Below are positions 1,250 to 28,345 of a stretch of 64,000 bases of DNA, in pieces (the first letter of the stretch is position 1; each line of letters opens with the position of its first letter). The position numbers were made by a program, and so were the translations under genes. The notes beneath the pieces were generated by a model. The model was not told the origin of the DNA and made no database searches. It saw only the letters and a list, made by a program, of their open reading frames with translations. The stretch lies in contig JBAZKN010000003.1 in assembly GCA_041650755.1 (NCBI GenBank), positions 18,060 to 82,059 of the forward strand, written 5' to 3'. Origin of the DNA: Patescibacteria group bacterium (GTDB taxonomy: Bacteria; Patescibacteriota; Patescibacteriia; UBA1558; GWA2-36-10).

Positions 1250-1435
1250 ATGCTGCCAGAAAATAAATCAAAAAAAATTTCCGGTTATGCAATGGCTGTT
1301 ACTGGGCTCATAATGCTTGTAATTAATGCCGTAGCATATATCTTCCATTTTAACTTCAAGGCACCTGCCCTAATTGTGCTGGGGATTGTATTTGCCGTAA
1401 TAGGCATGAGTCATGTCCGTAAATCCAGAAAATAG
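1250..1435 (+). CDS. small membrane protein, hypothetical
   Basis: 61 aa with two hydrophobic helices; starts 13 nt after the preceding stop. Confidence 0.3.
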   Translation: MLPENKSKKISGYAMAVTGLIMLVINAVAYIFHFNFKAPALIVLGIVFAVIGMSHVRKSRK

Positions 1436-1582
1436 ATCTTAAAATTCAACATTGCCCATGCCTGCTGGCAAAGAATAAATTCTGGTGGCAGCCATGTAAA
1501 TAAAGGTGTTAAATTTATCATTGACATAAACATTGGATAGCTATAAGCTAGCCAGGGACCAATCATATGGCGTTCTTTTGTC

Positions 1583-2011: not shown

Positions 2012-2371
2012 CCGGTGACTTATCGAGAACAGCTACGGACTTCATTCCCTGGTTTAGGGGGTGTTGTCCGTTTTTTTGTCAATATTTACAAAAAAACCAA
2101 CTTGTAGTAATGTTAGATTAAATACGGGGGAATAATGTAAAAAGGCGAAAAATCGCATAAAAAGAATGGGGGTGACAAATTATTTATGAAAAACGCAGGC
2201 ACAATAGGTGTCGCTAAACCAATCAAACAATCCAAGAAAACACCACGTTTACGAGTAATAAAAATTACTCGGAATACTGAATGCTCTATTAATCAATTTT
2301 AAATAAGATTTAATAACGATCTAATTTAATAATTAACGGAGCATTATTCCCCCCAGTTTGAGTGTTATTAA

Positions 2372-3403: not shown

Positions 3404-3704
3404 ATGGCAAAACCACGTTAAGTGGCGCAAAGAAAAAAAATCTGTTTTGGTATGTAACTGCCAAACTACTCAGATTTTTGAATTACCCTTAAAATACTCC
3501 GGCATATGCAAATCCTTAGATCGTAGTTACCGAATGCCGAAGAAATATAATGATCTACTCTCGGACTTACTAGAGCTCAAACTTCTTAAAAAAGTATAGC
3601 CTATTTTGCCGGGGTGTTTTATTTTCACCAAAAATATTGTATAATATAACTACTGGTAAAATAAAAATTTTTAATATAAAGACAAAGATTACAAACAAAA
3701 AAAT

Positions 3705-4112
3705 ATGGAACCATTTTATCGCAAAATTTACGGCCAAACTTGGCAACTAATAAAACAAAATCTACATCTACTATTCTTCGGGCTGTTTGCTTCACTCTTG
3801 GGTTTCAATGAAATCAAGATGATAATCAACTGGCAAGAGTCCAGCCCAGATCTAGTAAGTAATGGCCTGGCTAATTTATGGCTCTATCTCAAGATCATTG
3901 TGGTCAATGGCATTAATCTGCAAAACATGGACCCTTTTGTAGCATCCATCGGCCTGTTTATCCTGTTTGGCATTATTCTGGTGCTGTCCACCTGCTCCCA
4001 AGGCGCACTGATGTATAGCGCAGCTGAAAAAAATAAATCTGCTCAAGGCAAAAAGAAAATGAACAGTGGATTACAAATTGCCCTGCCAGAACACAATAGT
4101 ATCGAAGGCTGA
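3705..4112 (+). CDS. membrane protein, hypothetical
   Basis: 135 aa with 3-4 hydrophobic segments; downstream of the rSAM gene. Confidence 0.35.
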   Translation: MEPFYRKIYGQTWQLIKQNLHLLFFGLFASLLGFNEIKMIINWQESSPDLVSNGLANLWLYLKIIVVNGINLQNMDPFVASIGLFILFGIILVLSTCSQGALMYSAAEKNKSAQGKKKMNSGLQIALPEHNSIEG

Positions 4113-4388
4113 CCTAAAAGGCTAAAGCTATTCAGATTTTCGTCAGTAATATTAATTCATCCACAGCCTCTAATGCGGGACTGGCTCTGGAGAGGCATTC
4201 ATACTATAATGATAATATGGAAAAAAGGGGATCAGAATTACTAAAGAAAAATGAGAGTAAATATAGTGAGTTTTTTATTTTTAAAAAAAATATTAGCCAG
4301 GGGGATAATCATATTAATTTTGATCATAATCTAGGTGATGAATCTTTTTTTTGGATTGTAGCGGACTCTAGAGCAGATTTTAAAAATA

Positions 4389-5315
4389 TTGCAACAGATC
4401 ACAATGGCTAATTGGAAAAATATTCTCGAGGAACTAAATGCGAATGGAAGTAATTTTGATATTATTAGAAGATCTTATTTAAAAAAACTAAGCAAGTTAA
4501 CGGGTAGGAATGTAATCGCTTATTATAGTGGCTGGCTGCAGAAAAACGCACCGGATTTGCGTTTTTCTCTCTCTATTAATGACAATGATAAAAATGGTTT
4601 TATGAATGCGCTCGCTGGAGTGAATTGTAGCAAGGGCCTAGATTTAGTTCTTCATACTCCGGGTGGCGATGTTGCGGCTACTGAATCAATTATTGATTAC
4701 TTGAAAAGCAAATTTGAAGATATTAGAGTTATTGTGCCTCAACTTGCTATGTCTGGGGGCACTATGATAGCGTGCTGTGCCTCTAGGATTATTATGGGTA
4801 AACATTCAAGCCTTGGTCCAATCGATCCTCAAATTGGTGGCTTACCAGCCCATGGCGTTGTAGAGGAATTCCTGCGTGCCTATGAAGAGATAAAAGCCGA
4901 CCCTGTTAAGCAGGCAGTCTGGGCTCCAATTATACAAAAATATCACCCTACTTTTATTGGAGAGTGTGAGAAAGCAATTGAATGGTCACAAAAAATAGCG
5001 GAAAATTGTTTGCGAGACAGAATGTTTAAGGGTCAAGCTGATGCTAATGAAAAGGTAAAAAAGATAATTGATGAACTCACTGATCACTCAATTAGTTTAT
5101 CTCATTCTAGACATCTCTCGTTTAAGAAATGTAGTGAGCTGGGATTTATGGTTGATGATTTGGAGAGTGATAGTAAGTTGCAAGATGCTGTGCTTAGTGT
5201 GCATCATTCTTTTATTCATACATTAACATCGACCCCAGCGATAAAAATTATTGAAAATCATAATGGTGTAGCTTTCATACAAAGCGTGCCCCAATACTTA
5301 ATGAATAGAAACTAA
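4389..5315 (+). CDS. ClpP/crotonase-fold serine peptidase, S49/SDH-family-like
   Basis: 308 aa; LHTPGGDVAATESII and AMSGGTMIACCA segments resemble SppA/SDH Clp-fold peptidases; family assignment from memory. Confidence 0.5.
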   Translation: MQQITMANWKNILEELNANGSNFDIIRRSYLKKLSKLTGRNVIAYYSGWLQKNAPDLRFSLSINDNDKNGFMNALAGVNCSKGLDLVLHTPGGDVAATESIIDYLKSKFEDIRVIVPQLAMSGGTMIACCASRIIMGKHSSLGPIDPQIGGLPAHGVVEEFLRAYEEIKADPVKQAVWAPIIQKYHPTFIGECEKAIEWSQKIAENCLRDRMFKGQADANEKVKKIIDELTDHSISLSHSRHLSFKKCSELGFMVDDLESDSKLQDAVLSVHHSFIHTLTSTPAIKIIENHNGVAFIQSVPQYLMNRN

Positions 5316-6631
5316 ATCTGTAAAGTAATTTTTCGATTAATATAAACCAGCTTACTTTTCAGTAGCGACAACAACTCTCGTTTTTCCGAAATATTTCCAT
5401 TTTGCAGCAGATATTTGGCGTAGGTTCTTACGTCAATTTTTTTACCTTTAATTTTTTCAGGATTACCGCCGAGCACAGATGTTTGTAGATTGTTTAATCT
5501 TCTTACTTCATCCTCAAATTTCCCTTGAACTCCAAGTTGATCAATTTCAACCTTGTCAATTATTTTTGCCAATTCGTTTATGAGTGCTTCTTCCCTGATA
5601 TAAGTGTTTTTACATTCGGGGTTTTTGGCTCTGGTGCAACCGTAGTAAATATATTTGGCGGTCGTTCCGTCAGTCAATTTTTTGAATTTTTCTTGTCCGG
5701 TGATACTGGATCCGCACAGGCCACAAACCATGAGTTTGGTAAAGGCAAATTCTTTGTTTTTGGCGCCGCATGTAGCCTCGATTGTTTTGATGTTGGCTTG
5801 TGCCTGATCAAAAAGTTTTTGAGTGATAATCGGTTTGTGCTTTCCTTGATACCACTTGCCACTGTTTTTCGGGTACTCAAACATACCGTAGTAGAACGGG
5901 TTTCTCAGCAGATTATATATTCCGCTCAGAGCCAGGGTTTTTTGACCTCTGGTTTTAAAATTAAGATCAAACTTCAGCCAGTTGTATATCTTTCTACCGC
6001 TCCAACGCTCATTGGCGACTTTTTCGAATACTTGTTTGATTATTGGTGCGCGCAGGGGATCAACGATGATCTGGCACTTCTTATCCATTCGGTTTTGGTT
6101 CAGATAGCCCAAAGGCGCCATGCCTGGCCACAAACCCATTTCTACCCTCGTTCTCATGCCTCTTTTGACGTTTTCTCCGCGATGATCGTTTTCCAGTTTG
6201 GCGGTACTTCCCAAAATCATCAGCATGAATTTTTCATTTGGGTTATTGGTGAATGTTTGTCCGTGGGTTCTTATTTCCGCCAACAATCCTTGATCCATAA
6301 GATCGACGATGGCGCCTAAGTCACCGGCGTTACGACTTAAACGATCCGGCGCCCAAGTGATGATGCCGTTGAATCTGCCGGTTCTAATGTCACCCAAAAG
6401 CTCATTAAAGATTTCCCGCTGTCCCGTGTCCTTGGCCGAGTGACTTTCCCGTTTGATTTCAACAATATCCAAATTTTCCCGAACGGCAATATCCAACATT
6501 TCCTTAACTTGGGAATCGATGGACAGCACCTGGCGCTCCTCGGATTCCGTTGATTTTCTCGCGTAAAGGCAGTATTTGATTTTTTGTTCCGTTGTGGTTG
6601 CGTTTTCCATACAACAACATTGATGACGCAA
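5312..6631 (-). CDS. large serine recombinase (resolvase catalytic domain + recombinase domain + zinc ribbon)
   Basis: N-terminal YARKSTESEERQ..SIDSQ catalytic-serine context, DRLSRN, C-terminal CGLCGS..YYGC zinc ribbon; likely start MENATT at 6610; convergent with the protease gene. Confidence 0.85.
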   Translation of the reverse strand: MRHQCCCMENATTTEQKIKYCLYARKSTESEERQVLSIDSQVKEMLDIAVRENLDIVEIKRESHSAKDTGQREIFNELLGDIRTGRFNGIITWAPDRLSRNAGDLGAIVDLMDQGLLAEIRTHGQTFTNNPNEKFMLMILGSTAKLENDHRGENVKRGMRTRVEMGLWPGMAPLGYLNQNRMDKKCQIIVDPLRAPIIKQVFEKVANERWSGRKIYNWLKFDLNFKTRGQKTLALSGIYNLLRNPFYYGMFEYPKNSGKWYQGKHKPIITQKLFDQAQANIKTIEATCGAKNKEFAFTKLMVCGLCGSSITGQEKFKKLTDGTTAKYIYYGCTRAKNPECKNTYIREEALINELAKIIDKVEIDQLGVQGKFEDEVRRLNNLQTSVLGGNPEKIKGKKIDVRTYAKYLLQNGNISEKRELLSLLKSKLVYINRKITLQI

Positions 6632-6782
6632 CCCTTTCAGTGAGTCCAGAGTGGGTGATTAGGTAAGCTGTAGATAACTTTTTTTTGTAAGCCCGCATGT
6701 TTTTATTGACTTTTTGGCTTAAAAGTGGGAAAATTAAAGAAACAAATCGACACGGCGCTTTTATTTTTAACATATAAGCGCC

Positions 6783-7718
6783 ATGCAAATGCAAATGATA
6801 TTTATGACTCAAAAAAAGGTTAAAAAAACCGGAAAAAAAGACACCCTTACATTCATTGATCTGTTTGCCGGAATAGGAGGTTTTCACGTTGCCTTTCACA
6901 ATGCCGGAGCGGATTGTGTTTTTGTTTCGGAGTGGGATGAGTTCGCTCAAAAAACATACAGACACAATTTTTACAAAGTGTCTCCGGAGGTTTTCGATCT
7001 CGGCAATTTTGTCGGAGACATCACCAAGGTTGATCCGAAAAAAATTCCCGATTTTGACGTTTTGACCGCCGGGTTTCCTTGTCAGCCTTTTTCTCAGGCG
7101 GGATTTAAAAAAGGATTCAATGAAACTCGCGGCACTTTATTTTTCGATATCGCCAAAATAATAAAAGAAAAGAAACCAAAAGCTTTTTTTCTAGAAAACG
7201 TCAGAGGCCTGTACAATCACGACGGAGGCAAAACTTTCAAAACGATCAAGAGAATAATCACCGAAGACTTGGGTTATTCGTTTTTTTCACAAATCGTCAA
7301 AGCGTCCGATTTCGGTTTGCCGCAACACCGCCCACGTCTTTTCATGGTCGGATTTAAAAACAAGAAGATTGACTTTAAATTTCCCGAGCCCGCCAAAAGT
7401 CTGAAATACACCATGTCGGATATTTTCAAGGGCAAGTGCAACAAAGAAATCGGCTACACCTTGCGTGTGGGTGGTCGCGGAAGTAAAATTGACGATCGCA
7501 GAAATTGGGACGCATATATTGTCGATGGAAAGGTCGTTCAGCTCGGTCCGAACGAGGGATTGAAAATGCAGGGCTTTCCCGGTTGGTTCAAATTTCCTTC
7601 GGGGCTTTCTCCCGTGCAATCCATGAAGCAACTCGGTAATTCCGTTGCGGTACCCGCCATTGAGGCCGTTGCGGGAGAAATCGTCAAAACATTGAAAAAA
7701 TATGGGAACAAAAAATAA
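6783..7718 (+). CDS. DNA (cytosine-5)-methyltransferase
   Basis: Motif I FIDLFAGIGGF, motif IV GFPCQPFSQAG, motif VI ENVRGL, motif X QLGNSVAVP; likely start at M8 (6804). Confidence 0.9.
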   Translation: MQMQMIFMTQKKVKKTGKKDTLTFIDLFAGIGGFHVAFHNAGADCVFVSEWDEFAQKTYRHNFYKVSPEVFDLGNFVGDITKVDPKKIPDFDVLTAGFPCQPFSQAGFKKGFNETRGTLFFDIAKIIKEKKPKAFFLENVRGLYNHDGGKTFKTIKRIITEDLGYSFFSQIVKASDFGLPQHRPRLFMVGFKNKKIDFKFPEPAKSLKYTMSDIFKGKCNKEIGYTLRVGGRGSKIDDRRNWDAYIVDGKVVQLGPNEGLKMQGFPGWFKFPSGLSPVQSMKQLGNSVAVPAIEAVAGEIVKTLKKYGNKK

Positions 7719-8790
7719 CAAAGGCGAATGGTCGGAGTTATACGCATTTTTGAAAATTCTTGAAGAAAGAAAACTCTTCGCCGCGGACAAAAATTTGGAA
7801 ATAATCGAAGGAAAGTTTTTTGTGTTTCACAAAATCATCAGGGAAGAGAAAGATGAACCCGTGAAGATTTATGACATTTCCGAATCGCCGACGCAAATTT
7901 TGATCACAGACGAAAACGGAAAATTGTTGAAAGAATTAGATTCCGCCGGACTGAAAGAAAAAACTTTGAAGATTTTTAAAAAAATAAAGAGCGAGAAAAG
8001 CAGTTCTTTCGGGATTCCCGAAGCGAGCAAATTGATGAAGGAACTTCTGTGCACCAAGGTGAAAGCGGGCAGCGGCAAAAAAGCCGACCTGGTGGCCGTC
8101 ATTTACGACAGAATTTCAAATACCATGCCGATGTTGGGGTTTTCCGTCAAATCGATGGTGGGAGGAGCGTCGACTTTATTGAATCCGGGCAAGACAACAA
8201 ACTTCATTTACGAAATCAAAGGGTTCAAGGGCAATGTCGATGAAGTTAATCACATTGACACCAAATCTCAAATTCGGGATCGCGTGAGAAAAATCGTCGA
8301 GCAAGGCGGGTTGTTCGAGTATGTCGGCGTTTCAAATGAACAGTTTGAATTCAACATGAAAATGATCGATACGGCTTTGCCCGAGTTTGTCGCGCAAATG
8401 CTTTTCAATTTTTTCTCAAATTCCAACAGAACGATGTCGGATTTGACGGAAGAACTTTCCGGGGATGAGAACATAACCAAAAAATTCGGTTTGTCGCTGA
8501 CCAATTACGAATACAAAGTGAAAAATTTTCTGGATGCGGTGGCTTTGGGTATGGTTCCAAGCAAACCTTGGGACGGATTTTCAAAAGCCCACGGCGGCTA
8601 TATCGTCGTAAAACAAAACGGTGAAGTCGTTTGCTACCATCTTTACAACCGAGACGAGTTTCGGTCGTATCTGTACGAGAACACCAAGTTTGACGCCGCC
8701 AGTACGACTCGTTACGATTACGGCAAATTGTATGAAAGAGACGGGAGATTGTTTTTCAATCTTAACTTGCAAATCAGATTTGTGAAATAA
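7702..8790 (+). CDS. type II restriction endonuclease, HpaII-family-like
   Basis: 362 aa; overlaps the MTase stop by 17 nt and is followed by vsr, the same M-R-vsr order as the Haemophilus HpaII locus; N-terminal KGEWSELYAF; family membership recalled, not verified. Confidence 0.5.
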   Translation: MGTKNNKGEWSELYAFLKILEERKLFAADKNLEIIEGKFFVFHKIIREEKDEPVKIYDISESPTQILITDENGKLLKELDSAGLKEKTLKIFKKIKSEKSSSFGIPEASKLMKELLCTKVKAGSGKKADLVAVIYDRISNTMPMLGFSVKSMVGGASTLLNPGKTTNFIYEIKGFKGNVDEVNHIDTKSQIRDRVRKIVEQGGLFEYVGVSNEQFEFNMKMIDTALPEFVAQMLFNFFSNSNRTMSDLTEELSGDENITKKFGLSLTNYEYKVKNFLDAVALGMVPSKPWDGFSKAHGGYIVVKQNGEVVCYHLYNRDEFRSYLYENTKFDAASTTRYDYGKLYERDGRLFFNLNLQIRFVK

Positions 8791-8800
8791 CGGAATCATC

Positions 8801-9220
8801 ATGGCGGACATTTTCACAAGAAAAAAAAGAAGCGAAATAATGTCCAAAATAAAAGGCAAGGACAGCAAGATCGAAGTTGCCTTCAGAAAAAAGCTTTGGT
8901 CAAAAGGATTTCGTTACAGCAAAAATTCAAAAAATTATTTCGGAAAACCCGATCTGGCTTTGCCGAAGTACGAAACGGTCATTTTCGTCGATTCTTGTTT
9001 TTGGCACGGGTGTAAAAAACACGGCTCGATTCCGTCGACAAGAAAGAAGTTTTGGACGGAAAAAATAAATCGAAACAAAGCCAGAGACGGGGAAGTCGAC
9101 AGACATTATAAAAAGAAGGGATGGATCGTCATTCGGACATGGGAACACGAGATGCGTAAAAACCCCGACGAATTAATTGATAGGATTGTTTTGATTTTAA
9201 AAAATGTCTCCAGAGTTTAA
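8801..9220 (+). CDS. vsr: very short patch repair endonuclease
   Basis: 139 aa; FVDSCFWHGC motif; starts 10 nt after the REase stop. Confidence 0.85.
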   Translation: MADIFTRKKRSEIMSKIKGKDSKIEVAFRKKLWSKGFRYSKNSKNYFGKPDLALPKYETVIFVDSCFWHGCKKHGSIPSTRKKFWTEKINRNKARDGEVDRHYKKKGWIVIRTWEHEMRKNPDELIDRIVLILKNVSRV

Positions 9221-9377
9221 AACAGGTGGAATATTTTGAATAATTTAAACTAGAAGTATGAATAAAGAAACACCGGTTGAAAGTTTAGAGGTATGGCTAT
9301 CAAACAAACCATTTTGGGAAAAGTTTGTCTAGAAAATTAATCTTGAAAAGGAATTATTAACGGACGAAGATATTGAT

Positions 9378-11933
9378 TTGTGTTACAAATATTTATCCGA
9401 ACACTTGAGTTTGACAGATTCAATTTCCGACACTAAACCGGAGATATCTTTTAAGAATGAAATATTCACTGACACCGCAAACGCAGAATACGGACCTGTT
9501 TCGTGTGCTCAAAAAAAGAAAATCATTGAAGTTAAAGATTTTTCTGATGTTAACGCTATCTCTGGTACTTGCTCTATAAAATTTGGATCAAACTTAACTT
9601 TGATTTATGGCGGAAACGGTAGTGGTAAAAGCGGAGTTAGCAGACTTTTATGTAATGCTTGTTTTTCAAGGGGAGAGCGTGAGATTTTGCCAAATGTTAA
9701 AGTTGCTTCAATACCCGGACCGCAAGCAAAGGCCACTTTTGTTATTGATGACGGTTCCGGAAGCACACAAGATGTCGAGTATTCTCTTGGTGATAATATT
9801 GACGATCTTAAATGTTTCTCAGTCTTTGATTCAGAAAGTGTTTTGATACATCTTGATCAATCAAATAATGTTAACTTTACACCGGCACAGATAAAAATAT
9901 TTGATAAGGTTGCCGATACCATATCAAAACTTGAAGAGAAACTTCAGAATGAAAAAAATGAAAAGAAAAAGGATAATCCTTTCGCCTCAATGTTTTTATC
10001 TGATGATGCCACATCAGATACAGCGTTGTTTTGTAAAAACATAAGTGCGTCTACGGAAGTGGATGATTTTCTTAAACATGCAAATTTTAATGCAACAACA
10101 GACGAACCAAAAATATCGGATTTAAGCAAGCAGATTGATGAAAAGAAAAAGCTTGATATAACAAAAAAGAAAGCTCAGCTGGCATCGGATAGACAAAATT
10201 TAACAGCATTAAAATCTACACTGCAATCAACGGTTGATCGTTTCACTGAAGTTAAGAGAGATGCCATAAACAAAATAATTTCTGACATCACCGAAAAAAA
10301 GAAAATCGTTGAAAGTCTGAGCGTCCAAAGCTTCAACGATGGAATTATAAAAACTGTTGGTAGTCCTGAATGGAAAGCCCTTATAACAACAGCCAAGACT
10401 CTCTATGATAATGAAAAAGCAGCTAACGAGAATAACGATCTTGATAACTGCATCCTTTGTCATCAGAAATTATCATCTGATGCAAAAACTCTTTTTCAAA
10501 AATATTGGAAATTTCTCGAAAGCAAGGCAGAGTCGGAGCTTGCTTTGTTGGTGTCTCAACAAAGGTCTGCTTTAGAAGATCTTAAATCGGCAAAAACTTT
10601 GTATCCAAAATTTTTGGCAACGGATGCCGGTGTAAAAACACTGAATGAAGAAAATTCCACCTATCTGTCTGAGTTAAAAACACAATTTTCGGCCGTGTCT
10701 GATGTTCTTGATGATTGGATTGATAAACTTGGAAAATATGAGTCTGTCAGTACGGACGGCGTACCGACGATAAATTTAGAAAAAATTACCGAAATAGTAA
10801 ATGCAAAGACTACGGAAGAATCTAAACTTGTTGATCCGTCTGTTGAAATTGCCACACTTACCGCAAGGTTAAATTCTCTAAAACATAAAAAAGACGCTAC
10901 CGCCGTCAAAGATGCAGCTCTTGAGTATTTGTCTTTCTTGAAATGGTCATCAAAAACAAGCGGTGTCAGTTTCTCCGGTATTAAAATGGCTACTACCAAA
11001 AAACGAACTGAATCATTTTTGGTTCGTGTCGGAAATAGTTATAAAGGAGTATTTAATCAAGAATTAGCCAGTCTCGGTTGCGATTTTAATTTAGTAATGA
11101 ATACGAGCGGAGAGCAAGGAAATACCGTCAAAGAATATCGTTTAGATTTTGCAGAGGACTATAATCCCAGCCAGATATTGAGTGAGGGCGAACAAAACGC
11201 TTGTTCATTAGCCGACTTCCTCACTGAAGTTCAATTGGATAACAAAAATTGCGGTATTATTTTTGACGATCCTGTGACATCGCTTGATCATGAACGAAAA
11301 GATAAAATTGCCGAAAGACTGACGAAGGAGGCTAATCAGAGACAAGTATTAATTCTTACCCATGACATGGTGTTTATGAGCCAGCTCGTTAAATATGCAA
11401 ATAAATTTATTATTCCTTTCGTAGCTCACTGGATGAAAAAAGTTGATGGTATCCCTGGTTGCGTTGAAGACAATGCCAGTCCGAAGCTTGCAACATTAGC
11501 GAATTTAAAAGCCAAAGCACAAGAAGCGATCAAAGATATTAATACTCTCGATTCCACAACACAAGAGATCCATCTTGGATCAGCTTTTGATTATTTGCGT
11601 AGTGCTTGCGAGGCTTTAATCGAGGAAGTTTTGTTTGCCGGGACGATTCAAAGATATGATGATCATATCAAAGTGCAGAATTTAGAAGAAGTTGTCTTTG
11701 ATAAAGATTTGGCATTAAAAATTACCGACTTGCATGGAAGAATCTCAGGATTTTTATTAGCCCATAACCGTAGCGATTTACAGCGAGAAAATCCTCCTCA
11801 ATTGAGTGACTTTGAATCATTTCAGAAAGAATTCAATGAGCTTGAGACCAGCCTTCGATGCTCCTTAAAGACCGCTCGAAGCGAACGAAATCAAAGAAAA
11901 GAGGAAAAGGCTGCAGCTCAAGCTGGTTGGTAA
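9378..11933 (+). CDS. RloC/PrrC-like ABC-type ATPase with zinc-hook coiled coil; putative anticodon nuclease / defence ATPase
   Basis: Walker A GGNGSGKSG; ABC signature LSEGEQ; Walker B/D-loop IIFDDPVTSLD; H-loop LTHD; about 400 aa K/E-rich coiled-coil insertion with CILCH (CxxC) at its centre; C-terminal ~230-aa non-ATPase domain containing LRSACE (R-x3-E) and downstream His. Confidence 0.5.
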   Translation: MCYKYLSEHLSLTDSISDTKPEISFKNEIFTDTANAEYGPVSCAQKKKIIEVKDFSDVNAISGTCSIKFGSNLTLIYGGNGSGKSGVSRLLCNACFSRGEREILPNVKVASIPGPQAKATFVIDDGSGSTQDVEYSLGDNIDDLKCFSVFDSESVLIHLDQSNNVNFTPAQIKIFDKVADTISKLEEKLQNEKNEKKKDNPFASMFLSDDATSDTALFCKNISASTEVDDFLKHANFNATTDEPKISDLSKQIDEKKKLDITKKKAQLASDRQNLTALKSTLQSTVDRFTEVKRDAINKIISDITEKKKIVESLSVQSFNDGIIKTVGSPEWKALITTAKTLYDNEKAANENNDLDNCILCHQKLSSDAKTLFQKYWKFLESKAESELALLVSQQRSALEDLKSAKTLYPKFLATDAGVKTLNEENSTYLSELKTQFSAVSDVLDDWIDKLGKYESVSTDGVPTINLEKITEIVNAKTTEESKLVDPSVEIATLTARLNSLKHKKDATAVKDAALEYLSFLKWSSKTSGVSFSGIKMATTKKRTESFLVRVGNSYKGVFNQELASLGCDFNLVMNTSGEQGNTVKEYRLDFAEDYNPSQILSEGEQNACSLADFLTEVQLDNKNCGIIFDDPVTSLDHERKDKIAERLTKEANQRQVLILTHDMVFMSQLVKYANKFIIPFVAHWMKKVDGIPGCVEDNASPKLATLANLKAKAQEAIKDINTLDSTTQEIHLGSAFDYLRSACEALIEEVLFAGTIQRYDDHIKVQNLEEVVFDKDLALKITDLHGRISGFLLAHNRSDLQRENPPQLSDFESFQKEFNELETSLRCSLKTARSERNQRKEEKAAAQAGW

Positions 11934-12073
11934 TAGGAATTTATGTTAAGTGGTCGTACTTAAATTGAAATATTTAATTTTAAAATAAATTGTTGTAATT
12001 ATCCGTAGTTATTAAGATTATTACCTGTAGATAACTCAGCCTTCGCAAAAACCCTAACCTAAGCTAATATACG

Positions 12074-12094
12074 ATGGACATTTGTCCATTTTTT
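12074..12094 (+). terminator. rho-independent terminator after the RloC-like gene
   Basis: ATGGACA-TT-TGTCCAT perfect 7-bp hairpin followed by TTTTTT. Confidence 0.6.
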
Positions 12095-12294
12095 GGTTAA
12101 AATGTAATTGACAATTAAGTGACCTAAACCCGTCGTTTTCGGCGGGCATGGTCTCAAATCGTAACTCACATACAACCCGTCATTCAGGGCGTGAGTTACG
12201 TTATGCAGGGAAACTTGCATAGGGGCTTTAAAACCCTCCTGGTGGCGGGCTTTATGTTTGGCCCGCGTTTCCGGGAAAAGCGAAAGGAAACGTC

Positions 12295-13356
12295 ATGTCT
12301 TTAATCATCTCTCAGGGCGGAAGAAACGCCCGAAAAATCGACAAGACCGGTTTTGACAAGGAAGACTATCTGCAACAATACATTCGGGAAAATCCCGAAG
12401 CCATTCCGGTCTATGAAATCGCCCAAGACAAAAGGTTGTTTGTCGCCGCCCGTGAATTTCCGACCGAATCCGGTCCGATTGACGCGCTGGCCGTGGACAA
12501 AGACGGCGACATCTATGTCGTTGAAACCAAACTGTACAAAAACCCCGACAAAAGAACCGTTGTCGCCCAAGCGCTGGACTACGGCGCTTCGCTCTGGAAA
12601 CATTCCGGCGACTTTTCCGAATTTTTGAGCCTGCTTGACTCTGAAATTCAAGACAAATTCAATCTCACTTTTCCCGAAAAGGCAAAAGATTTTTTTGGTT
12701 TGACCGACGAGCAGTCAAGCGCCCAACTTGACGCCATGCAAAGAAATCTGCGCGAAGGCAATTTGAAGTTTGTCATTTTGATGGACTCAATGGAAGAAAG
12801 ACTCAAAGACCTCATAATCTATGTCAACCAAAACAGTCAGTTTGATATTTACGCCGTGGAATTGGAATACTACAAATTCAACGACTACGAAATCATGATT
12901 CCCAAGATTTTCGGGGTGGAAGTCAAAAAGAACGTCGGCACAACCGCAAACGCCAAAAGATTCAAATGGGACGAAGCCAAGTTTTTCAACTACGCCAAAC
13001 AAAACCTGTCCCAAGACATCTGTGATCAAGTGTTCAAGCTTTTCGCTTTCAGTAAAGACAAAGCTTCATCAATCAATTACGGCACCGGCAGTTATCCAGC
13101 ATTTTCACCCGTCTTTTCAAAGATAAGCGACAAATCGCTTTTCACTTTGACTTTGGACGGCGTTATCAGATTAAGCTTTAACTTTGAGTGGGCTTTTCGC
13201 GACAACGAAGCGTTGGCCAAAAAGTTCAACACCAGACTCAAAGAAATCGGAGTTATTATGCCCAAAGATTTTTTGCAGCTTCGTCCCAGCGTTGAATTCA
13301 AACAGTGGGGAAACAAGACGCAAGATATCATTAAAATAATAAAAGAATTAACATAA
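12295..13356 (+). CDS. PD-(D/E)xK nuclease-fold protein (NucS/DUF4263-like core), function unknown
   Basis: [21 protein letters not shown] = D..D/E-x-K restriction-endonuclease-like motif at aa 60-82; about 270-aa C-terminal extension without motifs; GC-richer than flanks. Confidence 0.45.
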
Positions 13357-13367
13357 CAAAAAACCAT

Positions 13368-13685
13368 ATGAAGAAATGTCCGTTTTGCGCCGAAGAAATC
13401 CAAGACGAAGCCGTCAAATGCAAACATTGCGGCAGCGATTTGGTCAAGCAGGAAAAGAGTGCGCCGCTTCAGGCCCAATCGATTTCCAATCCCAAGAGCG
13501 GGAAAAACAAGATGGTCGGCGGTTGCGCTTTGATCATCCTCGGCTTCATTATTGTTTTCTCAAGCGCTGCTTCCGGCGCTCAAGAAGGTTTAGGTTGGTT
13601 GGTGGTGCCGGCCGGCATGGCCATTTTGGCCGGATTGATAATTCTTTTGCTCGGCAAATTCGAAAATTGGTATCATTGGAAATAA
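13368..13685 (+). CDS. zinc-ribbon membrane protein
   Basis: N-terminal CPFC..(11)..CKHC zinc ribbon followed by two TM helices; 105 aa; starts 12 nt after upstream stop. Confidence 0.45.
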
Positions 13686-13724
13686 CGAGGTAAAAGATTG
13701 AACAACCGATTGTCTTTGACTTTT

Positions 13725-14309
13725 TCAAGTCGCGGTTTCATGCCCGTCCAGTTTTCGGTCGGGTTTTGAATTTTCTTCATTTTTGTCATCATTCGACTTT
13801 TTTGTATTGTCATCGGGATTTTTGTTTTTCAAAGTTTTTTCGATCTTTACCTGCTTGTTCAAGTTCGGATCACGCCAAGCGATCATCATGTCTTTTATTT
13901 TTTCTAAGCGCTCATTGGTCAGCAGACCCGCTTGATCATTTACCTGAATCGCATGGTTGTGATTGTGGGTGACTTTTTCCACGAATTCTTTGCTTCTGGT
14001 TTTCAGCCAAAACAAGACATAAGTGGGAACGCCGTCTTTGATTCCCTGAATGACTCTGCTTTGCGCCATGTCCGATATCAGCAAGGTGCCTTCTTTGCAA
14101 GCGTCTCTGACTTCGGCGGCGAATTTCCGGTCTTCTTGTGTCCAGCGATAAAAAGTGGAGGGATTGATACCAGATCTTAAGCAAGCCGTTGCGATAATCG
14201 GATTTTTTCGCAGTTCTTCAAGCAAGTCTTTTTTTATTCGACTTTTTCTTTTTTTGACGGTGATGGCCCGAGTTTTTGTCGGGTCCTTTTTTGGTTTGTT
14301 TATTGTCAT
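13725..14309 (-). CDS. HTH DNA-binding protein, phage terminase small-subunit-like
   Basis: N-terminal HTH IIATACLRSGINPSTFYRWTQEDRKFAAEV resembling terS-type HTH; K/D/E-rich tail; 4-nt overlap with upstream ParB-MTase gene. Confidence 0.35.
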   Translation of the reverse strand: MTINKPKKDPTKTRAITVKKRKSRIKKDLLEELRKNPIIATACLRSGINPSTFYRWTQEDRKFAAEVRDACKEGTLLISDMAQSRVIQGIKDGVPTYVLFWLKTRSKEFVEKVTHNHNHAIQVNDQAGLLTNERLEKIKDMMIAWRDPNLNKQVKIEKTLKNKNPDDNTKKSNDDKNEENSKPDRKLDGHETAT

Positions 14310-15703
14310 ATTTTTTTAGTTAACATCGGTTGGTTTATTTTTTTCGGTTTTTGTCCGGTTGTTTTTTCCCATCTTCGCAAAATCACCTGGGCATACACCG
14401 GTGACTTTTCCATCAAAAAGCAACGGCGCTTCATGGCGGTGGCGGCTATGAGCGTTGAACCCGAACCCCCGAACGGTTCGATTATGATGTCGTCTCGTTT
14501 GGTCAGCACTTTGACATAGGGGATGAGTATTTCAACGGGTTTGGTGCCAAAGATTATACCTTGCCCCGATGACTTTTGATCATCGGCTTTGTAACTGATG
14601 AAATCTGTCGGACAGATTTTTTTACCTTTTTCATAGCCTTCCCAGTGCGGTTTGCCGGAGATGGCAAACAAAGCGTTTTCGTATTCTTGTTGAAGCAAAG
14701 AATCGGCTTCTTGATCAACATTCAGTTCAATATCACCTTCGGTTCCCACCAAAGCGATATCGTGCTTGTTGAAGAATCGATGCTTGGCGGAAAATCCCTG
14801 GGTGCGGTTGGGCAAATGCCAAACAATGGTGTTTCGGTATTTCCAGTGTTTCTCCAGCTCGTTCCATATTATTTTTAGATTCTTGGGATTTTCAAAAACA
14901 ATGATGGAAAAGTCCGGTTTTTGAATTTTGGCGATATTAGTCATCCAAAGTTCGGTGAAGTTGTCGGGCAAAATATCGGTTTCCAAATATCGGCGGTTTT
15001 TCTTCACGCCAAAGCCGGTGGTGACCCCGTCCTTTTGTTTGGTTTTGCCTTTGAGATAATCAAGCAGGTAAGGAGGATCGGTAAGACACATGTCGGCTTT
15101 TTCATTGCCCATGAGTTTCAGGACATCGGCTTCAACGGTGCTGTCGCCACACATCAGTCTTGAACCGTTCAGTTCGTAGATGTCGCCTTTTTGCACGGAA
15201 ATGTTTTTGATGTCCAGTTTTGCCAATTCCTTGTTTAAATCAAACATTTCCGGTTCGCTTTCGAGTCCGAAAATTTCGTCCAGTTCTTCCGAGGAAAAAC
15301 CAACGTCTGAAAGCAGCGATTCGTCAAACTCGGCAAGCAGGGAATAATCGAATTCGCCGACATTTTTATTCAACCTGATATTGAGCTCTTTTTCTTTCTT
15401 TTCGTCGGGAATGTTCACATATACCACCGGGACTTCTTTGTAGCCCAAAGCTTTGGTGGCTTTCAGGCGCATGTGACCTCCAATCAGAATATTTTTGCGG
15501 TTTTCGGCCCCGTTGGCAATCAGCGGATCGCACAAGCCGAAGCGTCGTATCGATTCGGTCAGTTGTTCCATGGCTTCTTTATTATGTTTGCGGGGATTAT
15601 ACTCCGCCGGTTTCAACGTTGAGATCGGTAAATGAATGATTTTAAGATTGTTTGTTTCAGTCATAATTTTTTGATTAATTTTTAGCGATAAATAAAACGA
15701 CAC
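14306..15703 (-). CDS. ParB-like nuclease domain fused to beta-class DNA amino-methyltransferase (N6-adenine or N4-cytosine)
   Basis: N-terminal ParB/Srx motifs (LKPAEYNPRKH, IGGHMRLKA); motif IV CLTDPPY precedes motif I FGGSGST (beta-class order). Confidence 0.8.
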   Translation of the reverse strand: MSFYLSLKINQKIMTETNNLKIIHLPISTLKPAEYNPRKHNKEAMEQLTESIRRFGLCDPLIANGAENRKNILIGGHMRLKATKALGYKEVPVVYVNIPDEKKEKELNIRLNKNVGEFDYSLLAEFDESLLSDVGFSSEELDEIFGLESEPEMFDLNKELAKLDIKNISVQKGDIYELNGSRLMCGDSTVEADVLKLMGNEKADMCLTDPPYLLDYLKGKTKQKDGVTTGFGVKKNRRYLETDILPDNFTELWMTNIAKIQKPDFSIIVFENPKNLKIIWNELEKHWKYRNTIVWHLPNRTQGFSAKHRFFNKHDIALVGTEGDIELNVDQEADSLLQQEYENALFAISGKPHWEGYEKGKKICPTDFISYKADDQKSSGQGIIFGTKPVEILIPYVKVLTKRDDIIIEPFGGSGSTLIAATAMKRRCFLMEKSPVYAQVILRRWEKTTGQKPKKINQPMLTKKI

Positions 15704-16140
15704 GAGAATTCGCTCGTGCCGTTATGACTTGTTTATTTTAATTATTTAAAAAAGCTATATTAAATCAACAACAAAAACGAGCGAATCAATAAATGATATT
15801 ACGGTAAATGTCTTGTTGATTTAATACAGCTTTCTTGTTTCTTGTCGCCGTATTTGAATCTAGTCAGGCCAGGTAAATGCAAAATGTCGATAAATGTCTG
15901 ACTAACCGTCCGTTTTGGAAAAACAGTTCGGTTTTTCACCCTGCTGAGCTTTTGTCTAGCTAAGGTGGACTCAGTTACGATTGAAAAGAGCGGGTACCAT
16001 ATTAAATATAGCGCCAATTCTTAAAAAACTCAATATAAAGTATAATAATAGGGTGTGGATAACTTTTTTGACACTGGTGATACTATCGGCACTATTGTTT
16101 GTGGTCTTAATATTTTTTTAAACTGGTCAATTTTTTTTAT

Positions 16141-17067
16141 ATGATTTATGAATTAAAAGTAAGGGTTGACGGGCATTCAACTATCCGTGATTCTTATATC
16201 ATGAATGTTGATCCGTATTTATTGAAAATAGATTGCAATGAATATGGAGGCGTTGATTATTTATCTGTCGGTGTTAGGGTAAAAGATTTCCGTAATTATT
16301 TGCCCAAATTAAATATTTCTAAAGATGACCGTGCTCACACCTTGAATATTCCCGATAATCATTTTCATGCAGACATAATAAATTTATTGCAACACATTGA
16401 ATCCTTAGGCAGTTTTTGGCTTGGTGTTAAAAAAATTTATTGGGATAATCCAATATCAACATGGATTCCAGAAAATGAAGAGGAGGAGAAAATTTTAAAA
16501 AACGACAGCACCATTAACGGTTATAGTTTTGATAAAAAATATGAACCAAATATTGTTGAGTTTAGTTCCGGCATTCTTAGACAAATTATAGATAATAGAA
16601 ATTTTTATAAACGTTTGGTGATCCCGCTATCTTTTTACAGGGAAGGCAGAAATGAATTTGAATCTAAAAGATATATTCAGGCTTTTTATAATTTTTATTT
16701 TTATCTTGAGGATTTATACGGTAACGGCAAAACGAAGAATAATCAAATTGAGAATGAATTTTTAAATTCCAAACAATTCGTTGAAGCAGTGGAAGAAACA
16801 TTGGTTTTATTTAGCACCAATGGTTATGAAAAGCATTTTAGAAAACTTCAAGAACTTTTGTCTTCAAAAAAGTATGACTATCGCACGGAGGGCGTTGTCA
16901 AATTGATTGTTAGTATCAGGGGCAACTTGCACCACTTTTCTCAGAAAAGTACGTTACGGCTTGGACATTATTTCAATCAAGAAGAATTTAAAACGATGGC
17001 TTTTCTTCTGATGTCAATTTGCTTAAAGACGTTTACATATTTAACAACGGGAGTAAATCCTGAATAA
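16141..17067 (+). CDS. hypothetical protein (AT-rich island cargo)
   Basis: 308 aa, no recognisable motif; very AT-rich, Y/N/K-rich composition. Confidence 0.35.
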   Translation: MIYELKVRVDGHSTIRDSYIMNVDPYLLKIDCNEYGGVDYLSVGVRVKDFRNYLPKLNISKDDRAHTLNIPDNHFHADIINLLQHIESLGSFWLGVKKIYWDNPISTWIPENEEEEKILKNDSTINGYSFDKKYEPNIVEFSSGILRQIIDNRNFYKRLVIPLSFYREGRNEFESKRYIQAFYNFYFYLEDLYGNGKTKNNQIENEFLNSKQFVEAVEETLVLFSTNGYEKHFRKLQELLSSKKYDYRTEGVVKLIVSIRGNLHHFSQKSTLRLGHYFNQEEFKTMAFLLMSICLKTFTYLTTGVNPE

Positions 17068-17071
17068 TGTT

Positions 17072-17473
17072 ATGGCTGATATGTGTTCAATAATTTCGAT
17101 ATCAACAGTGAGCTCATTTTCCGTTTTTATATGGAAAATTATAGTATTGCTTTGGCCATGGTATTGGTTTGTCATTTTTTTATGTCTTGCAACTTGGATG
17201 ACTTGGGAAATAATTACCCGCAATGGTTCAGCGCATTATAATTCTGCAAATGGTTTTTCGCCTGGTTTTAATCGGTTTGTTGGTAGTGGAACTTATATGC
17301 TATTGCAGTCTTTGCTTTTTTTACTTTTTAAAATATTTTTTGGTGAATCCGTCTACTGTATGATTTGGCCTTATCCGGTTCATCTGGTATTATTTTTATC
17401 GACAGGATTGCTTTTGCATTTATCAGGATTTTGGCCTTATCTGAAAGAACCTGGTTACCATCGTCGCAGGTGA
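17072..17473 (+). CDS. hypothetical membrane protein
   Basis: 133 aa with four hydrophobic segments; 4 nt after preceding stop. Confidence 0.3.
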   Translation: MADMCSIISISTVSSFSVFIWKIIVLLWPWYWFVIFLCLATWMTWEIITRNGSAHYNSANGFSPGFNRFVGSGTYMLLQSLLFLLFKIFFGESVYCMIWPYPVHLVLFLSTGLLLHLSGFWPYLKEPGYHRRR

Positions 17474-17615
17474 AGGTAAATGCCGAGTATAATTGAATTC
17501 TTTAACCATAAGGTATTTACTTGTTGTTTAATAAAAAATAATGGATAAAAAAATGAGGACAGATGTGACTCCGTCCTCAGCAGTTGTGTTGTGACCGGTT
17601 ATTCCGGTTGTTTTT

Positions 17616-18866
17616 TTACCCTCCAAATTTCCAGGTGACACCGGCCGAGATGACATGAACGTCGACTTCGTATTTTCCCGGTGCCAGGAAGCCGAAGTGT
17701 TTTTCAACTTCTCTTTTACCCCAGCCGTAGGTATAGCCGAGATCGAAATCCAAGTTGTCGTTCGGTCTGTATCCAAGGCCGAAAGAAATTCCCGGGCCGT
17801 CCACTTCCGGTGCGGTCGGCGTGGTGGTTTCCCGCGGAATGGCCGCGGTATGCCAGCAGACGCCGCTTCTCAAAAGCCACTTTTCGGTCAGCTCGTACTC
17901 GGCGCCGAGATGGAAGCTGAAGTTGTCATGCCAATTCAGCTTTTGGCCGTATTCAAGCAGCTCGCCGATTTTGGCCGTCATCTGTTTGGCCGCCGAATAG
18001 TCGTACCAGTTGGCGTCAGCCAGAATTCTCAACCTGTTATTCGGTTCAAACTTCAAGCCGAGTCCGAGTCTTCCCGGAAAGTAGACCGAAGCGGTCATGC
18101 CGTATTTTCCAAGAGGCAAGCCCAGCAGCTCCGGCTTGGTTGATCCTTTCAGGCGGACCTCCATGGGCAGACTGTAGGACGCGCCGACAGTCCATTGGTC
18201 GTTGAGCCGGTAGAGAATTCCGATTCCGCCACCCAGTCCGATGCCGTCAGCTTCAGCTTCCATACTTGCCATGTCCAGTCGAAAGTTTCCAAGTTGGAGA
18301 CTGCCGGCATTGATAAACTGGGCGTAGCCGATATTCAGGCTCAGTCCGACGGAGAGTTCATTATTGACCCGGTAGGCCATTGCCGGAACCAGCGAAGTCA
18401 GACTCAGCATTCCTTCTTTCCAGGGAAAGTCGCCGTCATACTTGCTGCCAAGACCGCCAACAACGTGCCAGCCCGCTCCAATCGTCAACCGGTCGTTCAG
18501 GCGTGTGGAAAATCCGCCGAAAGGCAGAGGGATGATTCCTCCCTCCGAATTTTTGGATAATTCTCGGCCGCATTCCGACCACTGATATGTCCCTTCGGCG
18601 ATAATTGATTCCATTCCGAGTTGTAGTGAAGTACGCTTGATGTTGCTTAACCCCGCAGGGTTGTAGTAGAACGCCGAAGCGTCTACCGGATCGGCGATTT
18701 GAGCACCGCACATTCCCATGGCTCTGGGACCGACACTGCCGCTGACGCGGTTGACTCCTCCGGCTATTGCCGAATTGACGGTCAACAAGACCAGCATAAA
18801 TACCGCAATCGTTATCTTTTTCATCGTTTGTCCTCCCTTGGTAAAGGGTTTCGGTTTAAGGTTCAT
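17616..18866 (-). CDS. FadL/TodX-family outer-membrane transporter for hydrophobic compounds
   Basis: Signal peptide MKKITIAVFMLVLLTVNSAIA (probable start 18824 preceded by AGGGAGG RBS); glycine/aromatic-rich beta-strand pattern and C-terminal WKFGG barrel terminus typical of the FadL/Toluene_X family; GC-rich. Confidence 0.7.
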   Translation of the reverse strand: MNLKPKPFTKGGQTMKKITIAVFMLVLLTVNSAIAGGVNRVSGSVGPRAMGMCGAQIADPVDASAFYYNPAGLSNIKRTSLQLGMESIIAEGTYQWSECGRELSKNSEGGIIPLPFGGFSTRLNDRLTIGAGWHVVGGLGSKYDGDFPWKEGMLSLTSLVPAMAYRVNNELSVGLSLNIGYAQFINAGSLQLGNFRLDMASMEAEADGIGLGGGIGILYRLNDQWTVGASYSLPMEVRLKGSTKPELLGLPLGKYGMTASVYFPGRLGLGLKFEPNNRLRILADANWYDYSAAKQMTAKIGELLEYGQKLNWHDNFSFHLGAEYELTEKWLLRSGVCWHTAAIPRETTTPTAPEVDGPGISFGLGYRPNDNLDFDLGYTYGWGKREVEKHFGFLAPGKYEVDVHVISAGVTWKFGG

Positions 18867-18983
18867 TCAAGATACAATCCAACAGGTTATAGTACTCTTA
18901 TTTGTTGAAAAAGTCAAGGTTGGCTGGACATTTTTTGAAAAATGTGCTATTATGCTTTGTTGCCTGAATTTGGTATAATTTAG

Positions 18984-20027: not shown

Positions 20028-20104
20028 CAGGCGGGTGTCTTTCCGAAGATGCCCGTCTTTTTTATTAGCTTAAAATGTTGTATAATAAACTTAGTTAATA
20101 AAAT

Positions 20105-28340: not shown

Positions 28341-28345
28341 AGGTT

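Follow-up and report, generated by a model that had tools for sequence, protein, structure and literature searches.

The stretch of DNA analyzed here, called the window throughout, comprises 64,000 nucleotides of a Patescibacteria group bacterium (assembly GCA_041650755.1, contig JBAZKN010000003.1, positions 18,060 to 82,059). It holds a gene for a large serine recombinase (LSR) among restriction, phage-like and other accessory genes, and our subject is the integrative element to which this gene appears to belong. An earlier note on this DNA had placed here a mobile and defence island of about 13 kb, from about 4.2 to 17.5 kb. Every gene named in it between 4389 and 17500 was found again, in the map of open reading frames (ORFs) and in domain scans, at or within a few codons of the same place.

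A conserved membrane-protein gene of Patescibacteria, 324 amino acids long, is interrupted in the window. Its N-terminal half lies at 3705-4082 on the forward strand (126 codons), in an ORF that reads on into the inserted DNA up to a stop at 4112, and its C-terminal half lies on the same strand at 32738-33335. In the first search, the sole non-self homolog of the ORF 3705-4112 was protein P0002, whose residues 1-128 matched window 3705-4085 (E 3e-31) and whose residues 127-178 matched 32733-32888 on the same strand (tblastn, E 8.5e-14). The N-terminal half matched columns 1-129 of full-length Patescibacteria homologs of 319-333 amino acids and was divergent beyond them. A search with the C-terminal half returned 42 Patescibacteria homologs, typically of 324 amino acids, and most of them covered 100% of this half. 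In a multiple alignment the two window fragments met at one column and their 126 + 200 residues gave the family length. Rejoining the host arms gave back the reading frame (..LQIALDRFW..).

The gene is intact in two related genomes, GCA_964633905.1 and GCA_964992075.1, where it is followed at once by genes for a PilB-type ATPase (T2SSE), valyl-tRNA synthetase (ValRS), TsaE, TsaD, a TrmB-like methyltransferase and an fn3 protein. The order of genes to the right of 32738 in the window is the same except for ValRS between T2SSE and TsaE. None of the genes of 4083-32737, and hence none of those at 17.5-32.4 kb, was found at the equivalent locus in either relative; judged by conservation at the locus in these two genomes, the segment at 17.5-32.4 kb does not belong to the core chromosome. 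The comparison with relatives thus bore out the earlier view that the island genes are not conserved core content.

The two junctions have the structure of hybrid attachment (att) sites. attL (4064-4125, forward strand) is made of a B arm ..cagtggattacaaattgcc, the core C4083-T4084 and a P′ arm GCCAGAACACAATAGTATCGAAGGCTGACCTAAAAGGC, and attR (32605-32737, forward strand) of a conserved P arm ...CTTTGGCACCCAACAATAGTGGC and the core C32736-T32737. In letters, attL reads ..caaattgcc-CT-GCCAGAAC.. and attR reads ..AATAGTGGC-CT-ggacag..; the reconstructed attP is ...CAACAATAGTGGC-CT-GCCAGAACACAATAGTATCG... and the chromosomal site is ...caaattgcc-CT-ggacag....

The left junction was located by contigs from other sources. 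A JGI contig from another metagenome, L002, encodes an identical LSR protein and matches window 4080-10494 at 99.97% identity. On the left side of CTGCCAG, the window ORF 3705-4112 is replaced in L002 by a tRNA-Glu(UUC). Neither this tRNA-Glu nor its flank is the same as that of the tRNA-Glu at 41303-41377 of the window; the same element stands here at a second site. In L002 and in three further contigs, L015, L016 and L017, the exact match to the window starts at CTGCCAG, and the sequence to the left differs in each. In the latter three, 35-86 nt of the P′ arm (GCCAGAACACAATAGTATCGAAGGCTGACCTAAAAGGC...) follow a tRNA-like fragment (L015, LSR 96% identical), a contig end (L016, LSR 90% identical) and a tRNA-Trp (L017, LSR 91% identical), with the same starting base each time. 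Because the P′ arm starts at the same base in differing contexts, 4083/4084 is the recombination junction and the P′ arm lies to its right.

For the right junction, an exact 21-mer from just inside 32737, in the P arm, led to two metagenome contigs, L013 and L014. Both are 92-95% identical to the window over 115-134 nt, and in both the match ends at 32738. Since unrelated DNA with a terminator continues in L013, its junction is an attR in another host; since a family-type P′ arm, GCCAAGACATTTTTTATCGAGGACCGACCTA, continues in L014, its junction is an attP. CTG is common to all of the junctions. One P′ arm was met next to four different B arms, and the P arm next to two different B′ arms and, in one case, a P′ arm. 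No further copy of P or P′ was found inside the window. When the element ends are joined they form TGGC-CT-GCCA, a 4-bp inverted repeat around the core; as this repeat is centred on CT, we favour CT rather than TG as the likely crossover dinucleotide.

The att-type direct repeats that the earlier note had expected at 4.2 and 17.5 kb were absent, both there and at the true ends: the longest shared words were of 8-9 nt, which is within chance. Their lack is expected of a serine recombinase. An 8-mer common to both arms, ACAATAGT, was dropped as evidence for the same reason, 8-9-mers being within chance. Read from their sequences, the junctions point to an exchange at a short common core with hybrid attL and attR and without long direct repeats, as an LSR would make it.

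We therefore consider it very probable (roughly 85%) that window 4083-32737 is one integrative element of 28,653 bp, put by its own LSR into a membrane-protein gene of a bacterium of the Patescibacteria, or candidate phyla radiation (CPR). The left end is close to the 4.2 kb proposed earlier; the right end is at 32737, not at 17.5 kb, which makes the element about twice as long as proposed. The junctions might instead have come from an assembly chimera, or from a chromosomal rearrangement unrelated to the recombinase, given that the window is part of a metagenome-assembled genome (MAG) and that Logan contigs break at 3726 and 12229. An ENA contig is colinear with the window over all stretches compared (1-40767), however, and a Logan contig is colinear over 12229-27068; one homopolymer base was the sole difference found. 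The core at which independent contigs of other samples switch partner is also the exact place of both junctions. Such an origin is very improbable.

The recombinase gene (5312-6610, minus strand) encodes 432 amino acids with Resolvase (PF00239, 5e-21, model positions 3-143 of 145), Recombinase (PF07508, 5e-14) and Zn_ribbon_recom (PF13408, 2e-9) domains. The motifs YARKS(20)T and DRLSR and the zinc cysteines CxxC...C...C are in place, and the nearest solved structure is that of SPbeta YokA/SprA (1e-11). By its catalytic and zinc motifs and its recognisable att sites, the protein would be an intact enzyme rather than the inactive fragment that the earlier note had considered as a counter-argument, even though flanking repeats, also considered there, are indeed lacking. 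The gene had been drawn as 5312..6631, and its start is more likely the ATG at 6610: a 439-aa version starting from the TTG at 6631 had no match in an exact look-up, and gene callers use the ATG at 6610, which gives the 432-aa protein on record. The overall picture of a mosaic, horizontally acquired defence island with an intact LSR was thus confirmed by the domains, the motifs, the att sites and the absence of the genes from the locus in relatives.

Relatives of this LSR, 56-96% identical, are encoded in 143 species-representative genomes, and we retrieved 80 loci, almost all of them in CPR MAGs. In 53 loci the sequence extended for 3 kb or more beyond the LSR stop, and 44 of these had a tRNA gene within 6 kb. 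In all 44 the first tRNA was on the opposite strand with its 3′ end towards the LSR. These were mainly tRNA-Ser genes, with others for Trp, Arg, Gln, Gly, Met, Asn and Phe, and in most such loci the motif ACAAT..GTATCGG..GACCCA came directly after the tRNA end. The gap between LSR and tRNA was 0.1-5.4 kb and held variable genes; the corresponding interval of the window holds a protease gene and a 64-aa ORF. By these sequence contexts, the family is a large CPR-specific group of short LSRs (~430 aa) whose normal target would be a tRNA 3′ end. The window site is an unusual target, as it is not a tRNA, and the same LSR protein is found at two kinds of site, tRNA-Glu in L002 and a protein-coding gene in the window. 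In the literature searched, nothing relevant was found on serine-recombinase prophages of CPR bacteria, nor any description of CPR hosts combined with tRNA 3′-end targeting by a short LSR and a LOOT leader (see below).

In L002 and L017, the core CT corresponds to tRNA positions 71-72, and GCCA of the element provides the discriminator base and CCA. The window's own tRNA-Glu(UUC) (41290-41377, minus strand) has TC, not CT, at positions 71-72. After its CCA-A comes GCCAGAAC, the same as the first 8 nt of the element's P′ arm, shifted by 5 nt. The window B arm was also compared with the tRNA T-loop region (GATT..C, with the same spacing) and agreed at 7/11 positions followed by N8 and CTG. We rejected the B arm as a mimic of a T-loop, equally good sites occurring 12 times in the 64-kb window.

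Some relatives show signs of tandem or nested elements of the family. In L015 (6481-6600 and 9904-10016), a P′ arm of the window type adjoins a tRNA-like fragment (GGTTCGATTCC-N8-CT), which is preceded by a second, different P′-like motif; a second LOOT lies 3.4 kb beyond. L021 (6893-15554) carries the ParB-methylase/terS module twice, with a LOOT that lies downstream of the LSR.

The backbone that the window shares with its relatives includes two genes on the minus strand. One encodes a 194-aa helix-turn-helix protein (13725-14309) that matches PHROG small-terminase families at 5e-7 to 6e-4, the best of which bears out its earlier description as terS-like. The other (14306-15664) encodes a fusion of ParB_N with an N6/N4 DNA methyltransferase (PF02195, PF01555; phrog_498, 2e-84). 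The ParB-methylase has counterparts of 62-74% identity in L009, L013 and L043 and was found in about 19 of the 80 loci, and terS-like homologs follow it in L009, L011 and L013 and in about 14 genome loci; counted upstream of the LSR, the pair occurs in about 20 of the 80. L009, L018 and L021 have the order ParB-methylase, terS, terL, LSR (Terminase_6N, 9e-14), and in L011, which is arranged similarly, the terL is of another kind (Terminase_6C). L013 represents the other end of an element, where an M15 endolysin with a peptidoglycan-binding domain, a holin-like protein and a LexA/cI-like repressor are encoded 3.2 kb from the P arm. Because of the ParB-methylase/terS/terL genes and the lysis and repressor genes in relatives, we regard the backbone of the family as phage-derived. 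No capsid, portal or tail genes were noticed near the LSR in the relatives inspected, where no systematic test for them was made.

These relatives, with terS, terL, an endolysin, a holin-like gene and a repressor, and the presence of three close LSR relatives on IMG/VR contigs, would agree with an intact, inducible temperate phage of a CPR bacterium. The window copy lacks what such a phage should carry. A tblastn search of the window with the ORFs from L009, L010 and L011, both terL genes among them, gave matches only to the LSR, the ParB-methylase, the terS-like gene and the methyltransferase; the lysis and repressor ORFs of L013 had no match in the window. A PHROG scan of the unknown window ORFs gave no capsid, portal or tail match and only a protease family of unknown function. 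An intact phage is therefore very improbable. Lacking terL, lysis and repressor genes and any detected structural gene, the window copy is better described as a degraded phage-derived island.

A second recurrent component of the family, missing from the gene list of the earlier note, is LOOT RNA (Rfam RF03000). In the window it occupies 12121-12237 on the forward strand and is followed by a conserved 3′ motif, CTGGTGGCGGGCTTTATGTTT, which extends the feature to 12260. The match covers the whole model (1-121 of 121) at 83.3 bits, above the gathering score of 46.4, and the RNA lies 57 nt upstream of a nuclease-candidate gene. A promoter-like site, TGGACA-17-TAAAAT (12075-12103, forward strand), is suggested just upstream by a consensus scan. 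A −10 box and an ACAAyTnAATA motif are conserved before LOOT in relatives, and all 18 relatives inspected have the conserved motif CTGGCGGCGGGCTTTTTGTTT after it.

With a covariance model made from four copies, a further 24 LOOT RNAs were detected, spread over 23 of the 80 genome loci, for example at 6319-6439 of L018 and 9683-9805 of L034, and all nine relatives that were re-checked passed the Rfam threshold with 77-91 bits. The position of the RNA is nearly fixed: 21 of the 24 lie on the strand opposite to the LSR, 0.16-9.5 kb upstream of its start, and the window and L009 have the same divergent LOOT-LSR arrangement. What follows it is variable. An ORF begins 45-85 nt after LOOT in 16 of the 22 cases with room for one, and these ORFs belong to many unrelated families. 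Window 12023-12292 is 97% identical in L015, whereas the ~5 kb between LOOT and LSR are entirely different; this makes the LOOT-LSR interval a spot of cargo exchange, occupied in the window by the restriction-modification (R-M), Vsr and PDC-S06 genes. An IMG/VR scan for LOOT with a strict pattern returned the L009 contig only and was uninformative.

LOOT as a candidate small RNA is reportedly due to Weinberg et al. 2017 (PMC5737381); LOOT goes unmentioned in the main text of that paper. The fixed context seen here, in divergent orientation upstream of the LSR with variable ORFs starting 45-85 nt further on, sets the window LOOT apart from a free-standing small RNA, and by this fixed position it behaves like an operon leader. 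We infer that LOOT may be part of the element backbone and may act as the leader of a cargo-bearing transcript. Two other ideas were tried. A guide-like role through the word GACCTAA, common to LOOT and the P′ arm, was dropped because CCTAAAC is nearly invariant while the P′ arms differ between sub-families. Pairing of the motif after LOOT with the second hairpin, as a terminator or antiterminator, was rejected: there was no covariation, and RNAalifold gave no pairs.

A broader reading, put forward tentatively and at a little under even odds, is that the window copy belongs to a widespread family of compact, phage-derived elements specific to CPR bacteria, in which an LSR of ~430 aa acts at tRNA 3′ ends, a divergent LOOT serves as the leader or regulatory RNA of a cargo hot-spot operon, and a ParB-methylase/terS(/terL) module is carried along. 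In the sub-family of the window, crossover would take place at tRNA positions 71-72 and G73-CCA would be rebuilt. LOOT would then be a functional part of the element, for example a leader for processive antitermination or expression control, and not a free-standing small RNA.

The remaining genes of the left part are mostly defence-related or accessory. Between attL and the LSR, on the forward strand, lie a 64-aa cargo ORF (4217-4411), called in the ENA and JGI contigs and without family matches, and an SDH-type ClpP-fold serine protease (4404-5315, 303 aa as called; PF01972, 3e-26; phrog_11747, 4e-99). L015 has no such protease downstream of its LSR, and the P′ arm there comes ~70 nt past the LSR. 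In the LOOT-LSR interval, again on the forward strand, are genes for a C-5 cytosine DNA methyltransferase (6789-7718; PF00145, 2e-80; PADLOC MTase_II, 7e-101), an HpaII-family type II restriction endonuclease (7702-8790; PF09561, 1e-108, model positions 1-359 of 359) and a Vsr very-short-patch mismatch endonuclease (8801-9220; PF03852, 1e-28). The endonuclease gene overlaps the methyltransferase gene by 17 nt, the adjacency expected of an HpaII-family R-M system. Depletion of CCGG was tried as a test of HpaII specificity and was uninformative: CCGG occurs 96 times in the window against 46 expected, and no depletion was seen.

The next gene (9411-11933, forward strand, 840 aa as called) encodes an AAA_13/SMC-like ABC ATPase, best described as the PADLOC candidate PDC-S06 (PDLC04891, 2e-121). 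Matches to AAA_13 (1e-14) and SMC_N (4e-11) mark it as a Rad50-like ATPase, and in the PDB only weak Rad50 matches were found. Its earlier description as RloC-like is supported only as far as the AAA_13 ATPase goes; no anticodon-nuclease model matched. After LOOT comes a 353-aa protein (12295-13356, forward strand) that had been called a PD-(D/E)xK protein. The motif PID(63)...VETK(79) is visible and the family matches are weak (PDC-S11, 2e-16; NucS, 9e-5; NERD, 0.006), so it is a nuclease candidate; a 59%-identical homolog follows LOOT in L088. The PADLOC run suggested by the earlier note gave MTase_II, PDC-S06 and PDC-S11 matches in this block. A zinc-ribbon protein with a membrane segment follows (13368-13685, forward strand; Zn_ribbon_3, 5e-6; TcaA N-terminus, 5e-7).

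To the right of the ParB-methylase, two AT-rich ORFs of 308 and 130-133 aa (16141-17473, forward strand), the latter encoding a membrane protein, had no Pfam, NCBIfam, PHROG or PADLOC matches; the smaller is 69% identical to an ORF in L054. We considered an ORF upstream of 16141, or 17072-17473, as the rest of a split ORF, and found the frames closed or unrelated. The alternating composition reported earlier was seen as a mosaic of at least six blocks from 30% to 55% GC.

Because the boundaries are 4083 and 32737, the FadL gene and the genes beyond it that look like housekeeping genes lie inside the element. The FadL/OmpP1-type beta-barrel gene (17616-18866, minus strand; PF03349, 8e-52) forms a single-gene module with its own flanks (17545-18918). 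Exactly these 1374 bp are 85% identical in L096 and L097. In the MAG GCA_964535715.1 the module, at this 85% identity, adjoins NERD and type ISP R-M genes, and the same MAG encodes a 90%-identical LSR. A FadL barrel occurs here in a presumably single-membrane CPR bacterium; homologs with 33-88% identity are found elsewhere, at least one of them on a contig labelled Patescibacteria. Four independent contigs break ~130-150 nt upstream of FadL.

Beyond FadL lie a 344-aa protein without family matches in a patch of 50% GC (18993-20027, forward strand) and a histidine kinase with a 7TM-GAF architecture plus a response regulator (20105-22863, forward strand). The kinase gene is frameshifted in the window: a homopolymer at ~21997-22004 is A8 in the window and A7 in the ENA and Logan contigs, and in the window only it splits the 766-aa kinase into ORFs of 643 and 141 aa. 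The difference could be either an assembly error or a phase-variable tract.

Domain scans then identified, at 23048-28265 on the forward strand, an APH/homoserine-kinase-like kinase, a flavin amine oxidase, tyrS (25386-26567; TIGR00234, 362 bits) and a pyridoxal phosphate (PLP)-dependent decarboxylase whose best, weak matches are tyrosine decarboxylase models. A second tyrS paralog (28346-29665) is on the minus strand (TIGR00234, 261 bits; cutoff 113.8). Two tyrS paralogs thus flank the decarboxylase (25386-29665), with the kinase and the amine oxidase upstream. The adjacency of tyrS and decarboxylase can be likened to the tyrS-tdc tyramine operon of lactic acid bacteria. The last genes encode a 293-aa unknown protein and a B12-binding radical SAM enzyme (29885-32405, forward strand; domain scans).

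A mobile unit of ~13 kb (4.2-17.5 kb), with native chromosome from FadL or the histidine kinase onward, would fit the concentration of defence and phage-like genes in 6.7-15.7 kb, the AT content of 20-28 kb, which resembles that of the left flank, and the PADLOC result, which gave nothing convincing to the right of 15.7 kb and no convincing defence genes in the right half. The C-terminal half of the host gene and the conserved P arm are, however, at 32.6-32.7 kb and not at 17.5 kb. No att-like sequence or repeat was found near 17.5 kb, and the genes of 17.5-32.4 kb are absent from the locus in relatives. We consider the shorter unit very unlikely, and the view that housekeeping genes resume after FadL did not survive, as the insertion runs on to 32737.

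A different question is whether the 28.65 kb ever moved whole. The element might have arrived smaller, perhaps at 10-16 kb, with part or all of the cargo of 16-32.4 kb added in place. The compositional blocks, the self-contained 1.37-kb FadL module common to another MAG, and the P arm, which is 3.2 kb from the ParB-methylase in L013 as against 17 kb in the window, all speak for this, as does the fact that L002 documents the first 6.4 kb only. Neither a second recombinase nor a transposase nor an internal att site was found in 16-32.4 kb, however, and accretion before integration is equally possible. Accretion in place, rather unlikely in our judgement, is the main live alternative. It differs from the arrival of the complete element in timing only, and both keep the boundaries at 4083 and 32737.

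For the element of 28,653 bp, we propose that a circular form with attP was joined by the LSR to a chromosomal site inside the 324-aa membrane-protein gene. By exchange at the CT (or TG) core the gene would have been split, with attL arising at 4083 and attR at 32737. In the tRNA-targeting sub-family, the corresponding crossover would fall at tRNA positions 71-72, and GCCA of the element would restore G73-CCA. The family backbone consists of the ParB-methylase, terS, terL, the LSR and att, in this order, with lysin and repressor genes at the other end and a divergent LOOT. Of this the window copy has kept only the LSR, LOOT, the ParB-methylase and the terS-like gene, and the remainder would be cargo. 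One putative cargo block runs from the LSR to the ParB-methylase, with the HpaII-type R-M and Vsr genes, the PDC-S06 ATPase, and LOOT with the PD-(D/E)xK nuclease candidate; another would be the ~17 kb of mosaic modules (FadL, the two-component system, tyrS/decarboxylase/oxidase, the second tyrS and the B12-binding radical SAM enzyme). From the motifs and junctions, it is plausible that the window LSR made the insertion and could still excise the element. The flanking att sites suggest that the 28.65 kb would move together; the part documented elsewhere is 4083-10494.

Several observations weigh against this proposal. An excised circle, an empty site and a second copy of the right half (10.5-32.7 kb) were found in no collection searched, and exact look-ups of the right-half proteins returned the same strain only. 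We identified no recombination directionality factor. The likeness of the B arm to a T-loop, no better than at 12 other places in the window, offers no explanation for the choice of site. The three agreeing assemblies (ENA, Logan and the NCBI MAG) possibly came from the same or related samples. Finally, the left flank of the window (1-3700), with NUDIX, cyclase-like, 4HBT thioesterase (in a 52% GC patch) and radical SAM genes, shows no synteny with the two relatives, both of them distant (the split protein is ~55% identical). In L102 and L104 the corresponding flank carries FtsH, DUF4440 and an acyltransferase or methyltransferase. The DNA on the left side of the element may be variable in its own right.

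Two further places in the window involve tRNA genes. Partial copies of a tRNA-Cys (59843-59917) stand on both sides of it, one of the 5′ half before it (88%, 59775-59814) and one of the 3′ half after it (81%, 59984-60026); they may be remnants of other integration events. At 62066-62320 a 106-nt unit is repeated in tandem, twice in full and a third time for its first 40 nt, with 100% identity. The repeats run into the 3′ end of a tRNA-Gly (62306-62382, minus strand), and each repeats the last ~15 nt of this tRNA.

The general kind of element, a phage-derived island integrated by an LSR, is already known. The integrases of SPbeta (SprA, or YokA, of Bacillus subtilis), phiC31, Bxb1 and A118 are three-domain recombinases like the window LSR, and as with phage serine integrases a protein-coding gene is split at a short core, without long direct repeats and with imperfectly symmetric att arms. 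Unlike them, the window LSR has only 432 aa, its family mostly targets and regenerates a tRNA 3′ end, its host is a CPR bacterium, the window copy is without phage functions and no directionality factor was identified. The staphylococcal cassette SCCmec, moved by Ccr, is likewise an LSR-bounded accessory island without virion genes, and CcrB is the best NCBIfam match of the window LSR (1.5e-34). The match scores 119 bits against a CcrB cutoff of 900, however, and there is one recombinase instead of a CcrAB pair, a target other than rlmH and a host of another phylum.

LSRs with multiple targets were reportedly described by Durrant et al. in 2023. One LSR protein at tRNA-Glu in L002 and in a coding gene in the window resembles integration at a pseudo-attB site, for which a report on PhiBT1 in Nocardia provides a precedent among serine integrases (PMC5937489). 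In contrast to the PhiBT1 case, the events here would be natural ones, as read from the junctions. Phage satellites, such as the phage-inducible chromosomal islands (PICI), share with the window copy a site-specific recombinase and a small-terminase-like gene, a weak match in the window, without detected structural genes, and the relatives are seemingly small. They differ in that the integrase here is of the serine and not the tyrosine type, no replication module or repressor was recognised in the window, some relatives have terL and lysis genes, and no helper phage is known. In E. coli, dcm and vsr place Vsr beside a 5-methylcytosine (5mC) methylase. The window resembles this arrangement, its genes for a 5mC methylase, a full-length HpaII-family endonuclease and Vsr forming one block that reads in a single direction; CCGG, as noted, is not depleted.

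The island call based on composition ended 15 kb short, and aminoacyl-tRNA synthetase and signalling cargo was taken for housekeeping genes. Short LSRs whose attP, attB, attL and attR can be read from the sequence provide material for work on the specificity of serine integrases and for genome-integration tools. Mobile elements and defence islands of CPR/Patescibacteria are poorly charted; in the present case both ends, the target and the empty site could be placed to the exact base, with at least 143 related loci as a family context. Through this family the orphan LOOT RNA acquires a genomic setting that recurs, and its function comes within reach of experiment.

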